A stretch of 64,000 nucleotides of DNA from contig CAVXLD010000001.1 in assembly GCA_963762565.1 (NCBI GenBank), forward strand, positions 160,001 to 224,000, in the 5' to 3' direction. The notes below the pieces were generated by a model. It was given only the letters and a program-made list of their open reading frames with translations. It ran no database searches and was not told the DNA's origin. The position numbers and the translations under genes were made by a program. This stretch comes from an uncultured Verrucomicrobiae bacterium. Its GTDB lineage: Bacteria; Verrucomicrobiota; Verrucomicrobiia; Chthoniobacterales; JAFAMB01. Positions 1,242 to 22,586 of the stretch are shown piece after piece; the first letter of the stretch is position 1, and the number at the start of each line of letters is the position of its first letter.

Positions 1242-2186
1242 TTACTTCTTCTTGTCTTTGTCCCCACCGCCCTTTTTTGGAGGTGCGCCGCCGCCGTGAT
1301 GCTCCGGGGCTTTATTAGTGGTGTGATGCTCGGGGGGGTTGCTAGTGGTGTGGTGCTCGGTGGTATGATGTTCGGTAGTACCATGGTGTTCGGTAGTACC
1401 ATGGTGCTCGGTAGTTCCATGATGCTCGGTAGTTCCATGATGCTCCGTAGTTGCATGCTCGTTCCCGTGATGCTCGGCGCCATGTCCACCGGTAGTCTCT
1501 TTATGTTCCTCCTCGTGAGCCGTCTTCGTCTGGGCCGATTTTCCAGGGTTACCTTTGTTCTCCGAGAACTTTTGGTTATGGTCGTGGAGCGCGTCATTAT
1601 GATGAGCTAGTTGCTCCCCTGTTGGCCCACGATGCGCCTCGTGGTCGAACTTTTCCTCCTCAGCTGTCGGTTTCCGGTCGATTCCGCCGGGTCCGTTAAA
1701 GCTAGCTCGGTTATTCGCCTCTACCCACGAATGGTTAGCGTAAGTATTGTGAATCCCGGCGCCGACATGCCAGCAGGCGCTATTATAAAAGAAATGGCCG
1801 CCTTCCCAATGGCCACCCCAGAACCCGGTTCCGAAATAACCAAATCCATAGTTAATTCCGCCGTAGAATCCGACGTGAGGTCCCCAATAACCGACGTGCC
1901 AAAAGTAGCCTCCATTACCCCAGCCCCACCACCCTGGAGTCCAAAGGAATCCGATCGTCGGCGGCAGTATCCACACGCCAGGGACCCAATAATAGTCGTC
2001 GTCTCCCCAGCCCCAATATCCAGGGCTCCACAAGTATCCATCCCCAGGGCAGGGCGGTTGATCGTAGACCGGGATTGGGGGAGGCGCGACTGTAATCGAT
2101 ACGTCCGCTGAGGCGAGCAAAGGTGTAAAACCTAGCAGGCCGGCAAACAGCATTAGGTGCACTCGTTTAGTAACGAACTTCAACAT
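1242..2186 (-). CDS. YXWGXW-repeat secreted protein with His-rich (TTEHHG)n tail
   Basis: Signal peptide, APPP-PVYDQPPCPG, repeated W-x-PGYW motifs; start set at MLKF by analogy with the paralogue. Confidence 0.85.
   Translation of the reverse strand: MLKFVTKRVHLMLFAGLLGFTPLLASADVSITVAPPPIPVYDQPPCPGDGYLWSPGYWGWGDDDYYWVPGVWILPPTIGFLWTPGWWGWGNGGYFWHVGYWGPHVGFYGGINYGFGYFGTGFWGGHWEGGHFFYNSACWHVGAGIHNTYANHSWVEANNRASFNGPGGIDRKPTAEEEKFDHEAHRGPTGEQLAHHNDALHDHNQKFSENKGNPGKSAQTKTAHEEEHKETTGGHGAEHHGNEHATTEHHGTTEHHGTTEHHGTTEHHGTTEHHTTEHHTTSNPPEHHTTNKAPEHHGGGAPPKKGGGDKDKKK
1337..1480 (-). repeat. 18-bp coding tandem repeats encoding TTEHHG-like units
   Basis: Repeated ccatg(a/g)tg(c/t)tcggtagt units. 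Confidence 0.8.
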
Positions 2187-19168: not shown

Positions 19169-19918
19169 ATGCCGATCAGGAAAGAATCCGGGAATCGCGT
19201 TTTTAGTTATTTTTGCCGGTATTTGGTGCGTCTGATCTTTTCTTGGTCGTGTCGAGTCCATCGGCTCCGAAAGAGTCAAGAGTACCCGAGTGGACCGTTT
19301 ATTGTGGTGGCAAACCACATCAGCCATTTCGATCCGCCAATGCTCGGATGCTGGTTTCCGCGGTACATCGACTGGATGGCCATGGAGGAATTATATAGTA
19401 AACGCTGGAGCGCATGGCTCATGCGTTCGCTCTGCGCGATTCCGGTGAAACGGGCTGCCGGTGATTTCGCTTCCTTACGGGCCGCGCTGGGTCGACTGAA
19501 GCTTGGCCGAGTTGTCGGCATTTTTCCGGAGGGCGGCATTCGGGCGGGGACAGGATCGATTCTAGAAGGAGCGCCGATTTGGGGAGGGTTTGCCGGGCTC
19601 AGCATCCTCTCGGATAAACCGGTCGTTCCCTGTGTTATCATCGGGACTGATCGTCTTTACCGGCCTAAGAATTGGCTGCCATTCCGCCGTGTAGAAATAT
19701 GGATGGGGTTCGGCGAGGCGATTCAGCCTCCAAACGATGTCCCGCGGGAACAAGCTCAAGCGGTTTTAGTCGACCGTGTCAGAGCATCCCTAAATGCACT
19801 CAAAGAAGAGCTGGTCCGACACTACGGGCTTCGTCCCGATGACTTGCCTCAAACACCGCAGTACCGGAAAAGAGAAAACGCTACGCCGACAAACAGAAAG
19901 GGCGGTTCGGCTGGCTAG
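19169..19918 (+). CDS. Lysophospholipid acyltransferase (PlsC-like)
   Basis: NHISHFD, IFPEG. Confidence 0.9.
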   Translation: MPIRKESGNRVFSYFCRYLVRLIFSWSCRVHRLRKSQEYPSGPFIVVANHISHFDPPMLGCWFPRYIDWMAMEELYSKRWSAWLMRSLCAIPVKRAAGDFASLRAALGRLKLGRVVGIFPEGGIRAGTGSILEGAPIWGGFAGLSILSDKPVVPCVIIGTDRLYRPKNWLPFRRVEIWMGFGEAIQPPNDVPREQAQAVLVDRVRASLNALKEELVRHYGLRPDDLPQTPQYRKRENATPTNRKGGSAG

Positions 19919-19940
19919 CTCGAAGATTTTTGGAAGAAAA

Positions 19941-20032
19941 TGGGTTGGGTGGGACTCGAACCCACAACCAACCCCGAACTCCGAAATTCTTCGCGAGCAG
20001 GAGCTTTCGGGGCTGCTCTACCATTGAGCTAC
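19941..20032 (-). pseudogene. tRNA-Lys-derived copy B: lacks the first 6 nt; 13 nt of the anticodon arm replaced by a 39-nt hairpin-type insert
   Basis: Identical to 20296-20367 on both sides of the insert at 19973-20011. Confidence 0.85.
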
Positions 20033-20283
20033 ATCTCGGGACCGCTCTTGAGTAGGTAGATCGCGATCTGCGGATTCTTTTTCGCTTTGAGTTGGCGCTC
20101 AAGCAGTCTCGCCGACCGAATGTCCGGCATTTGCTTGGTAGCGACGAGCTCTAAGGGCAGACCAAACCGTCGGGTAGAATGGACCTTGCCACGTTGGTGT
20201 TCGCCGAAGCGCCGATCGAGATTTTCGGTCGACCCGATATAGTGCCCGCCACAAGACCCACGAATGATATAGACCCACGCCAT
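20029..20283 (-). CDS. Small stand-alone GIY-YIG nuclease (84 aa, UPF0213-like)
   Basis: MAWVYII...HYIGSTENLDRRFGEH...ARLLERQLK. Confidence 0.9.
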   Translation of the reverse strand: MAWVYIIRGSCGGHYIGSTENLDRRFGEHQRGKVHSTRRFGLPLELVATKQMPDIRSARLLERQLKAKKNPQIAIYLLKSGPEM

Positions 20284-20295
20284 CCTAACCAAAAA

Positions 20296-20367
20296 TGGGT
20301 TGGGTGGGACTCGAACCCACAACCAACGCCTTAAAAGGGCGCTGCTCTACCATTGAGCTACCAACCC
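20296..20367 (-). tRNA. tRNA-Lys(UUU)
   Basis: GGGTTGGTAGCTCAATGGTAGAGCAGCGCCCTTTTAAGGCGTTGGTTGTGGGTTCGAGTCCCACCCAACCCA cloverleaf; CCA not encoded. Confidence 0.95.
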
Positions 20368-20407
20368 AAAAAATCTGCATTCCATTCTTCCCCTTGGCAT
20401 CCCTAAG

Positions 20408-20461
20408 CCACAACCAACCCCGAAAGCTTTCGGGGCTGCTCTACCATTGAGCTACCAACCC
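20408..20461 (-). pseudogene. tRNA-Lys-derived copy A: 5' part intact, anticodon arm replaced by CCCGAAAGCTTTCGGG, T-loop and 3' end missing
   Basis: GGGTTGGTAGCTCAATGGTAGAGCAGC-CCCGAAAGCTTTCGGG-GTTGGTTGTGG. Confidence 0.85.
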
Positions 20462-20537
20462 CGGGAAAACGGACTGGAATACTATAGCTAAAACGGAATG
20501 CCGCAAGCGGTTTTGAGCTGCGGTTTGCGTGAAGTCG

Positions 20538-21116
20538 TCAAAACAGATCCTGAAGCCGGACCTCGACATCCGGGAACGCTTGGAAAGCAACGATCCCCTG
20601 AGAGACGACAGTACCTTCATATTTGCCGTTCGCATTCAGGCGAAATACTCGGACGAACGCATTCGCCAGATCGATGATCCAATACTCTGGAATGCCAGCG
20701 CTCTGGTAAGCCTGGAGCTTTTTTTCAGAATCGTATTTCAGGCTGGTATCTGACACCTCGACTACGAGATAGATTTGTTGCGGCAAAATGTGTTGGCGTC
20801 GGGTTCCTGCATCTGTCGTGAATAGAACCAAATCGGGCTGCAGTTCATTAAAGTCCGGGATCGGAATCGGCCGTCCCGGACCAACCTTGAACCGGCCTTT
20901 CTTTTGCTCGCCGAAGATTTCGTTGAGCCTTTCCAGGATAAATTGATGCTCAGGACCGATCGGCGCCATTTGGATAAGGAGACCATCGAACAGTTCAACC
21001 CGGTCGGTTGGTTGCAGAACACCACTTTCGCCAAGCCTATGGTACTCCGCCACGGTGAGCCGTCGTAAGGAGAAGGCAGCTTCCTCAGCAGGGTTGGACA
21101 AAACTGATGAAGCCAT
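20538..21116 (-). CDS. Uma2-family (DUF820) endonuclease-fold protein
   Basis: TVAEYHRL, RVELFDG, QPD, LVVEVSDTSL.YD...K...Y...GIPEYWIIDL. Confidence 0.92.
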   Translation of the reverse strand: MASSVLSNPAEEAAFSLRRLTVAEYHRLGESGVLQPTDRVELFDGLLIQMAPIGPEHQFILERLNEIFGEQKKGRFKVGPGRPIPIPDFNELQPDLVLFTTDAGTRRQHILPQQIYLVVEVSDTSLKYDSEKKLQAYQSAGIPEYWIIDLANAFVRVFRLNANGKYEGTVVSQGIVAFQAFPDVEVRLQDLF

Positions 21117-21701: not shown

Positions 21702-21968
21702 ATCTACAAGGTTTTTAACGTAGGACCGGGCGATGGGTTACGGGAAAAGGCGAGGCCATGCGGAGTGATGGAGTAGTGGAGCTCTGCGCTGTCGGGTTGG
21801 AGCGTGCGAAGTGGACGGTCATCGGGTGCACTTCAGCGGTGTCGTCGCGTAATTCTGACGGCAGCGTCAGAATCTACTGACGAGTCCGGGCAAAACGGCT
21901 CAGAAATACTTGTCCCAGGGGATGTTTTTCCGTGCGACTCAGCCGGAAAGACCGTATTGGCTGAGTTT

Positions 21969-22586
21969 ATGAAAAGATTCCGCTTGACTGCTTTCGTTGT
22001 GGCTAGCGCGCTGTCGCTAACAACCGCCAATGCGATGCCCGATTTGGGCCGCGAAACCGGGAAGTTTATCCGGCAAGAACAACCCGCACCAAAGGGAGTA
22101 CGGACTTTTGAGCCGGCTAAATTACCGGTAGCAAAAGGAAGCGATAATACAAAGGTGTCGATGGCAGTACCGCTACATCCTGGCGACGGGAATCTAGCGA
22201 TGGGAGTACCGCTTCGTCCCGGCAACGGCATTCTAGCGATGGGAGTACCGCTTCGTCCCGGCAACGGCATTCTAGCGATGGGAGTACCGCTTCGTCCCGG
22301 CAACGGCATTCTAGCGATGGGAGTACCGCTTCGTCCCGGCAACGGCATTCTAGCGATGGGAGTACCGCTTCGTCCCGGCAACGGCATTCTAGCGATGGGA
22401 GTACCGCTTCATCCCGGCAACGGCATTCTAGCGATGGGAGTACCGCTTCATCCCAGCAATGGCATTCTAGCGATGGGAGTACCGCTTCATCCCAGCAATG
22501 GCATTCTAGCGATGGGAGTACCGCTTCGTCCCGGCAACGGCATTCTAGCGATGGGAATACCGCTACGCCCACCGACGGCATTCTAG
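21969..22586 (+). CDS. Secreted protein with 13-aa tandem repeats (MGVPLRPGNGILA); probably extends to 22651
   Basis: Signal peptide MKRFRLTAFVVASALSLTTANA; the repeat continues past the stop in a shifted frame. Confidence 0.75.
   Translation: MKRFRLTAFVVASALSLTTANAMPDLGRETGKFIRQEQPAPKGVRTFEPAKLPVAKGSDNTKVSMAVPLHPGDGNLAMGVPLRPGNGILAMGVPLRPGNGILAMGVPLRPGNGILAMGVPLRPGNGILAMGVPLRPGNGILAMGVPLHPGNGILAMGVPLHPSNGILAMGVPLHPSNGILAMGVPLRPGNGILAMGIPLRPPTAF

Follow-up and report, generated by a model that had tools for sequence, protein, structure and literature searches.

The locus described here occupies positions 20461–19941, read on the minus strand, of a 64,000-nt stretch of DNA from an uncultured Verrucomicrobiae bacterium; this whole stretch is called the window, and the genome to which it belongs is referred to as the own genome (G000). 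An intact tRNA-Lys(UUU) gene is followed at this locus by a gene for an 84-aa GIY-YIG nuclease, and the two lie between partial copies of the same tRNA gene, copy A upstream and copy B downstream, in which the anticodon arm is replaced by a hairpin.

Copy A (20461–20408, minus strand) consists of tRNA-Lys positions 1–27, followed by CCCGAAAGCTTTCGGG and TTGGTTGTGG (positions about 44–53). It is preceded by the native upstream flank of the tRNA gene, stops within the T stem and loses its likeness to tRNA from position 20407 onward. The hairpin within it (hairpin A, 20418–20435, no strand assigned; CCCCGAAAGCTTTCGGGG) has a 7-bp stem and a 4-nt loop. These 18 nt, CCCCGAA-AGCT-TTCGGGG, stand in for the 17-nt anticodon stem-loop, and DNA folding showed that hairpin A as single-stranded DNA forms exactly at the place of the anticodon arm. 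A spacer of 40 nt (20407–20368, minus strand), poorly conserved between species, separates copy A from the intact tRNA-Lys(UUU) gene (20367–20296, minus strand; Rfam RF00005, 77.9 bits), which was also predicted by ARAGORN, with coordinates one base wider on each side than those of Rfam, and which according to ARAGORN is the sole gene for that tRNA in the assembly. The gap between the tRNA and the nuclease gene (20295–20284, minus strand; TTTTTGGTTAGG) comprises 12 nt with a weak AGG ahead of the ATG, and is too short for a separate promoter. The nuclease gene (20283–20029, minus strand; 84 aa; Pfam PF01541, E 8e-14) runs into copy B, the stop codon TAG (20031–20029) being part of the GTAGCTC of that copy. 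Copy B (20032–19941, minus strand) comprises tRNA positions 7–27, a split hairpin, the variable loop, the full T arm and the 3' acceptor strand; it lacks the 5' acceptor strand and matched the Rfam tRNA model over positions 7–64 with 33.8 bits. In its hairpin (hairpin B, 19972–20012, no strand assigned) the outer arms CCCCGAA and TTCGGGG surround AGCT together with a nested insert of 23 nt (20001–19979, minus strand; CCTGCTCGCGAAGAATTTCGGAG) that lies in the loop.

The tRNA stretches retained in the copies (27, 21 and 33 nt) were 100 % identical to the intact tRNA. A chance origin of the copies is excluded, since the 21-nt word from the 5' part of the tRNA occurs at only three places in the 6.1-Mb genome, all of them at the locus. 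An initial annotation, made from the letters of the DNA, had already described the minus-strand order of copy A, tRNA-Lys(UUU), 12-bp gap, nuclease gene and copy B, the supply of the nuclease stop codon by copy B and the identity of the retained parts with the real tRNA, and each of these points agreed with the present analysis, all elements lying where they had been placed. Its statement that both copies carry the palindrome in the anticodon arm applies without change to copy A, where the palindrome is intact; in copy B it had overlooked the 23-nt insert by which the palindrome is split.

Searching positions 19700–20700 against Rfam gave tRNA matches alone, besides two weak chance hits, and a scan of the minus strand of the locus for promoters and terminators gave nothing useful. 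RNA runs contained just 0.06 of the sampled locus words. The arrangement was also checked in Logan contigs assembled from four soil runs that belong to a single study and may be the source samples; the Logan assemblies are independent of the GenBank-derived one. All junctions were bridged, and one contig of 795 nt covers 20035–20700. Logan contigs, being k-mer assemblies, end at the tRNA repeats, and no single listed piece crosses the whole 1001 bases. The order of elements at the locus is supported by independent assemblies, and the assembly artefact that the initial annotation had named as a possible objection is not indicated.

The GIY-YIG domain fills the 84-aa protein, leaving no second domain: the match to PF01541 covers residues 1–71 with 52.1 bits (cut-off 22.6; E 8.2e-14). 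Residues Y5, Y15, R25, H29 and E62 were invariant across nine homologues, and we take them to be the catalytic positions of GIY-YIG enzymes (two Tyr, Arg, His or Tyr, Glu). An AlphaFold2 model with a predicted local distance difference test (pLDDT) score of 89.8 showed strands and helices in the order expected of the GIY-YIG fold, a three-stranded sheet with helices. The top of the Foldseek list was made up of GIY-YIG structures, with 1zg2 (UPF0213 protein BH0048) first and Slx1 next, UvrC-N being also near; the sequence match to the solved structure 1zg2 had an E value of 2e-5. The 84-aa protein had no match in PHROGs and nothing above cut-off in NCBIfam (TIGR01453, E 0.0017). Three matches to PF01541 were found in the own genome, of which only the gene at the locus is a small stand-alone gene. 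Ratios of non-synonymous to synonymous substitution (dN/dS) of 0.07–0.22 between the gene copies of G000 and two relatives (G004 and G029) indicate that the protein is under purifying selection. The protein looks functional; nuclease activity, recognition of a specific site and mobility of the element are predicted.

Homologues of the nuclease were found in 20 genomes among 61 relatives, and in 17 of the 26 homologue loci scanned a tRNA lay within the 3-kb locus, usually together with partial copies of the same tRNA. A wider scan, which combined a pattern scan with tblastn in one genome per species and was built on a six-sequence alignment (a nine-sequence alignment was too diverse), confirmed 208 relatives, and the best-scoring 80 were analysed. 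Nearly all of these 80 loci belong to metagenome-assembled genomes of Verrucomicrobiota, a few being labelled Terriglobales, Acidoferrum or Alphaproteobacteria. An intact tRNA ended 5–22 nt (median 9) upstream of the nuclease gene and on the same strand in 71 of the 80 loci (Lys-UUU 41, Met-CAU 28, Lys-CUU 2); as a base rate, the 6.1-Mb own genome has 43 tRNA genes. Within these 71 loci, a 3' tRNA fragment, extending from position 41–43 to the 3' end, lay downstream of the gene in 68, and a 5' fragment (positions 1 to 26–28) lay about 60–95 nt upstream of the tRNA in 37, with arrays of 5' fragments in six. The hairpin was present downstream of the gene in 67 of the 71 and on both sides in 34, and two or more nuclease genes occurred in tandem in 17. 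Eight of the nine remaining loci have tRNA-derived sequence directly upstream of the gene. In one locus (L095), the sole tRNA-derived part is the hairpin with a 3' tRNA copy downstream of the gene. In many relatives the 8 nt (T)AGAGCAG are the sole remnant of the tRNA 5' half downstream of the gene, and the ORF then stops at the TAG of this remnant, versus the TAG of GTAGCTC at the window locus. The 80 loci were the best-scoring ones and are mutually related, so these figures describe one clade and not independent events.

The replacement itself follows a consensus. The sequence CCCCGAA-N4-TTCGGGG sits between GAGCAG, where the D stem of the tRNA ends, and TTGGT, in the variable loop, in Lys and Met loci alike. 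Its loop varies (AGCT, AGCC, AGCA and others) and its arms are constant, except for rare variants that alter both arms jointly (CCCCGAC..GTCGGGG, CCCCGAT..ATCGGGG and CCCCGC..GCGGGG). The hairpin is tied to the nuclease clade and not to a particular tRNA. The recurrence of identical junctions in the Lys and Met loci of many genomes means that the unit was inherited or copied whole and that copies A and B are not independent insertions of a palindrome. More distant nuclease clades have other hairpins at other tRNA positions. Thus in four loci (L014, L017, L022 and L023) a hairpin stands right after the anticodon loop of initiator-type Met and Asn tRNAs, and the anticodon loop provides the TAA of the ORF, while in L016, L018 and L021 a long hairpin lies in the variable loop or T arm of tRNA-Val. 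The order differs in this Val group: there the gene is preceded by the broken tRNA copy and followed by the intact tRNA, and L018 has a duplicated promoter flank too.

Association between hairpin and nuclease was examined in an order-level survey of 301 genomes, in which the nuclease was scored as present at E values up to 1e-12; 30 genomes were positive, including the unpublished G178. The motif GCAGCCCCGAANNNNTYCGGGG occurred in 22 of these 30 genomes versus 12 of the 271 without the nuclease, and a reversed-pattern control gave 0 in all 301.

Within the genus of the own genome the cassette is polymorphic at a single site. G000 and G004 are occupied, and G004 has a hairpin copy behind each of two nuclease units, which come after copy A and the tRNA. 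The site is empty in G005, where the same upstream flank is followed directly by an intact tRNA-Lys and nothing more. G003 has a decayed copy A and the tRNA, the nuclease gene and copy B being absent, and G001 has a decayed stub of the nuclease gene. As the flank of G005 runs straight into an intact tRNA-Lys, the promoter side and 5' half of the native gene are represented by copy A. Judged against the empty site, the native tRNA-Lys appears split at the anticodon arm, its 5' half having become copy A and its 3' half copy B. A complete replacement tRNA-Lys stands, with the nuclease gene, between the halves, so that the cell is not deprived of its only tRNA-Lys(UUU). The cassette can be lost through recombination between the repeated parts of the tRNA. 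The copy A of G003 (L041, about 1590–1665, minus strand) had several substitutions in both its tRNA part and its hairpin; in two congeners with the nuclease gene, copy A was identical to the tRNA. A comparison of these three genomes suggests an ongoing homogenization of copy A that is confined to nuclease-bearing genomes.

Related hairpins are dispersed through the own genome. Exact arms with a 3–5-nt loop were found nine times versus 0.22 expected, and allowing one mismatch per arm gave 123 hairpin-like sites. GCAG(C) stood directly 5' of 73 of the 123, and 67 of the 74 oriented hits at these sites had a T on the 3' side. Most of the dispersed sites fall into two families resembling miniature inverted-repeat transposable elements (MITEs), with a hairpin near each end, whose second arm differs (TCCGGGG). 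At least two such families were seen, one of about 140 bp (115 blastn hits) and one of about 250 bp (99 hits); a hairpin resembling the tRNA-linked one, with the same 5' GCAG, is present in their inverted ends, and some pairs bracket ordinary genes. Examples are L244 (G000:C11:64400-65800), L245, L246, G000:C3:81705-81836 and G000:C3:438560-438810. In two hairpin pairs that were opened no transposase was found, the contents being a GxxExxY gene and an ORF that, read by eye, is presumably an RsmD-like methyltransferase. GxxExxY nucleases were considered as partners of the dispersed hairpins and dropped, just two of 12 PF13366 loci being within 500 bp of a hairpin. The motif GCAGCCCCGAANNNNTYCGGGG occurred 50 times in the own genome, 24 times in gene-bearing G004 and 0–5 times in four congeners without the gene, a contrast that is a hint only because the assemblies are drafts from which repeats are often missing.

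Hairpins were also found inside other repeats. In G113 and G294 all 16 sites that were examined had the hairpin in the loop of another repeat, away from tRNAs. The host repeat at these sites (L247–L262) starts with GTCATCCTGAGCGAAGC or GTCATTGCGAGCGAAGC, which recall the 5' GTCAT signature of the NTS and SRM repeats discussed below, and the hairpin keeps its GCAG there; no host repeat of this type was found in the own genome. Three places in the own genome, one of them copy B, have the hairpin nested within another hairpin. The 23-nt insert of copy B takes the form CCTGCTCGCGAA-N4-TTTCGGAG (23–25 nt), and near-identical inserts recurred in hairpin loops of relatives (L049, L072, L105 and, inverted, L101) and once in a D loop (L074). 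This insert acts as if it were a further inserted palindrome of still smaller size. On these observations, hairpins may be copied into other hairpins.

The closest published parallel is the Ssn family (cd10448) of Chenal et al. (2025; PMC11893778). In that work, single-domain GIY-YIG genes are bracketed by cognate hairpins, and the proteins bind the hairpin in single-stranded DNA and cut beside it; the loop is free, whereas the stem sequence and flanking bases are decisive. The 84-aa protein shares with Ssn proteins a single GIY-YIG domain and a length below 100 aa, under the 150-aa limit of the family. As in the Ssn case, the gene is flanked on both sides by its own 20–50-nt hairpin repeat (hairpins A and B), which gives an arrangement of hairpin, gene and hairpin like that of an insertion sequence; the stem and its immediate flanks are conserved, the loop is free, and related hairpins are dispersed in the genome. 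Unlike Ssn loci, the hairpin has a different sequence and lies within partial tRNA copies, and the gene stands behind an intact tRNA. The term 'tRNA' has no occurrence in the main text of the Ssn paper, and in the 12 of its 14 supplementary files searched it occurs in gene descriptions only (PMC11893778). The paper also lists a cd10448 homologue for Chthoniobacter flavus, in which SRM enrichment is absent (0.96-fold; PMC11893778). As proxies for Ssn proteins, the published NTS motif was used to find metagenome contigs, from which two small GIY-YIG ORFs adjoining exact NTS copies were taken. The 84-aa protein is a relative, either as a possible member of the Ssn family or as a sister clade.

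Other known systems share single features with the locus. SegB is a free-standing, phage-borne GIY-YIG homing endonuclease with a separate DNA-binding part, and this architecture defines its type. The locus shares with SegB a GIY-YIG gene among or adjoining tRNA genes and the occurrence of tandem units (here in the 17 of 71 loci), and with SegB-type homing genes a presence/absence polymorphism at one site among close relatives. Unlike SegB, the gene is chromosomal and encodes the catalytic domain alone (84 aa), with no DNA-binding domain. In the accessible part of the SegB paper, the nuclease associates with tRNA genes, promotes the inheritance of segments that contain them and drives tandem or segmental amplification of tRNA segments, and hairpin-substituted tRNA fragments are not described there (PMC13096335). 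UPF0213/YhbQ-type proteins and the Slx1 nuclease domain are nearest among solved structures in sequence and fold, a likeness at the level of the domain fold. We know of no link of either to tRNA genes or hairpins. Short palindromes, some of them nested, that have spread through a genome are also typical of REP/REPIN-RAYT systems and MITE repeats, but no RAYT or transposase was present in the two gene-bracketing pairs opened (no genome-wide RAYT search was made). Full-text searches of the literature turned up no account of small GIY-YIG genes lying within tRNA genes together with hairpin-substituted fragments, subscription-only papers being outside their scope.

The locus is best read as one copy of a widespread mini-cassette living inside tRNA genes. 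Because its anatomy fits the Ssn picture and the tRNA gene offers the same layout, this cassette is interpreted as a selfish one, a single-domain nuclease with its cognate hairpin lodged in a tRNA gene, to which a probability of roughly 0.6 is given. The anatomy of the locus, its recurrence, the empty site, the purifying selection on the protein and the conservation and covariation of the hairpin are established here, and from them a course of expression, binding, cleavage and mobility can be proposed. The nuclease gene would be transcribed by read-through from the tRNA promoter. The protein would then recognize the hairpin and its flanks in single-stranded DNA and cut alongside, as Ssn proteins do at NTS and SRM hairpins. 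The sense strand of a tRNA gene has the layout GCAG (the end of the D stem), hairpin and T, and the breakpoints observed at positions 26–28 and 41–43 lie at the feet of that hairpin; a tRNA gene might in this way present to the enzyme a layout that matches its own. Cuts made there could be repaired from a cassette-bearing copy, with the conserved tRNA sequence providing homology arms, as in homing. Such repair would swap the anticodon arm, duplicate the tRNA parts and possibly amplify the units in tandem. The initial annotation had likewise spoken of a minimal tRNA-linked system that is mobile or generates repeats, and this part of its proposal is supported by a recurrent unit of nuclease, tRNA copies and palindrome that is polymorphic among congeners.

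Several observations weigh against the selfish cassette. The intact tRNA beside the gene retains its anticodon arm, and a nuclease cutting native tRNA genes would threaten its own locus. The 80 loci, as the best-scoring relatives, are not a random sample, and copy A is missing in 34 of the 71 loci, so that the picture of two scars is not universal. With respect to the Ssn parallel, the published SRM pattern, which has 30 matches in the genome as a whole (4.9 per Mb), was absent from both 500-bp flanks of the gene, and BLASTP to the two NTS-adjacent ORFs gave 35–37 % identity with E values of 7e-8 and 2e-8, the E value of 1e-10 that marks the Ssn family being defined against another reference, SsnA of N. 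meningitidis. The exact motif is missing from eight of the 30 nuclease genomes and is found in 12 genomes that have no nuclease; the association is partly trivial since the motif flanks the gene itself, and the genomes compared are mutually related.

The same findings can be explained with the nuclease as a domesticated host function, an Ssn-like nuclease for single-stranded DNA that would serve the cell, for instance by restricting or shaping incoming or replicating single strands at dispersed hairpin repeats. The tRNA locus would then be a strong expression platform and the tRNA fragments by-products of local cutting and repair. Such a role would suit the presence of one small GIY-YIG gene in the genome, the purifying selection on its protein, the motif counts in gene-bearing and gene-less congeners and the preference of the dispersed sites for a 5' GCAG(C) and a 3' T, and it has a precedent in Neisseria, where SsnA together with the NTS repeats modulates transformation (PMC11893778). 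It is nevertheless an unlikely explanation: the gene is patchy, occurring in 30 of the order's 301 genomes, and one genus contains empty as well as decayed sites, which is unlike a core function, most of the dispersed copies are MITE-like families with the deviant second arm, and the counts derive from draft assemblies. A further possibility is that the hairpin itself is mobile, an 18–22-nt palindrome copied into hairpin-forming DNA such as anticodon arms and repeat loops, with the GIY-YIG protein as at most the mobilizing enzyme and the two tRNA copies hit separately. The nested hairpins, the 16 of 16 sites of G113 and G294 in the loop of a different repeat and the recurrence of the 23-nt insert at varied positions and in varied orientations all point this way, and they lend some support to the idea, raised in the initial annotation, that short palindromes are inserted into hairpin loops. 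That idea fails for copies A and B themselves, which are not independent insertions. The hairpin-bearing copies are always accompanied by the nuclease gene in constant order, their junctions are identical in the Lys and Met loci of many genomes, and the own genome has no hairpin-substituted tRNA copy elsewhere, and we regard a hairpin that is itself the mobile unit as decidedly improbable.

Transcription of copies A and B into tRNA-like RNAs that lack an anticodon and accompany, guide or regulate the nuclease, which the initial annotation had put forward as one alternative, is very improbable. Copy B does retain the D arm, T arm and 3' end and is still matched by the Rfam tRNA model, and the hairpin has approximately the length of the arm it replaces, so that a cloverleaf-like outline is kept. 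However, copy B is without the 5' acceptor strand, many relatives keep just 8 nt of the 5' half, and copy A ends in the T stem, is missing in 34 of the 71 loci and is decaying in gene-less G003. The two copies folded as RNA were unremarkable (z −1.5 for A and −1.7 for B), and the stem is conserved in sequence beyond what pairing alone would demand, which fits recognition of DNA by a protein. Integration often takes place at tRNA genes and leaves partial repeats of the tRNA behind; the repeats seen here could on that ground be the scar of an integrase-type island, or else an assembly artefact. The 15 ORFs scanned in the 12–29.5-kb part of the window (12 ORFs of at least 130 aa plus the GIY, Uma2 and acyltransferase ORFs) included no integrase, transposase or other recombinase family, whether tyrosine or serine, which agrees with the absence of such genes noted in the initial annotation and sets the locus apart from integrase-borne islands. 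The entire unit measures about 0.5 kb, and both 5' and 3' fragments are present, each broken at a border of the anticodon arm. With all junctions bridged in independent contigs of the four runs and the same layout present in many other assemblies, a scar or an artefact is hardly credible.

The selfish cassette might, more speculatively, amount to a complete mobile element of about 0.35–0.5 kb, with an 84-aa nuclease and an 18-nt hairpin, which would be among the smallest autonomous ones. The nuclease would read the shape of DNA and a few flanking bases in tRNA genes that are single-stranded and heavily transcribed; the anticodon arm would give way to the hairpin of the element, with a duplicate of the tRNA ensuring survival of the host, and related hairpins would be seeded genome-wide by this enzyme. 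For spread between phyla, tRNA genes would offer landing pads and at the same time universal homology arms. This extended version is doubtful and is offered as a tentative one. If the interpretation as a nuclease-plus-hairpin cassette is true, a protein that consists of a catalytic domain only would gain its choice of site through a DNA hairpin and its flanks, and there would be a reason for such genes to sit at tRNA genes. The Ssn pairs of nuclease and hairpin would gain a new hairpin type whose genomic target is defined. Enzymes able to cleave single strands of DNA at one defined hairpin would be of practical use, and with an own hairpin for each nuclease clade seen here, enzyme/site pairs would be ready-made for testing. 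The interpretation would also explain one class of tRNA annotations that are odd, partial or of 'undetermined anticodon'.

ARAGORN indeed called some of the hairpin-substituted copies as undetermined tRNAs with 2- or 4-base anticodons (agct, agtt and ag), as in L055 (1746–1823), L068 (939–1013) and L100 (1315–1398), and such copies would be a source of false tRNA annotations.

The genes in the neighbourhood of the locus are ordinary and include Uma2, an acyltransferase, DUF2270, sugar-binding proteins, a HAD hydrolase and nusA-infB. The gene for a putative endonuclease of the Uma2 family (PD-(D/E)XK-like; 20538–21116, minus strand) lies directly upstream of copy A; it showed no sign of belonging to the cassette and was not a regular neighbour in the related loci inspected. 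Further upstream, a 260-aa ORF without Pfam match (21804–22586, plus strand) contains about ten tandem units of 13 residues (GNGILAMGVPLRP).

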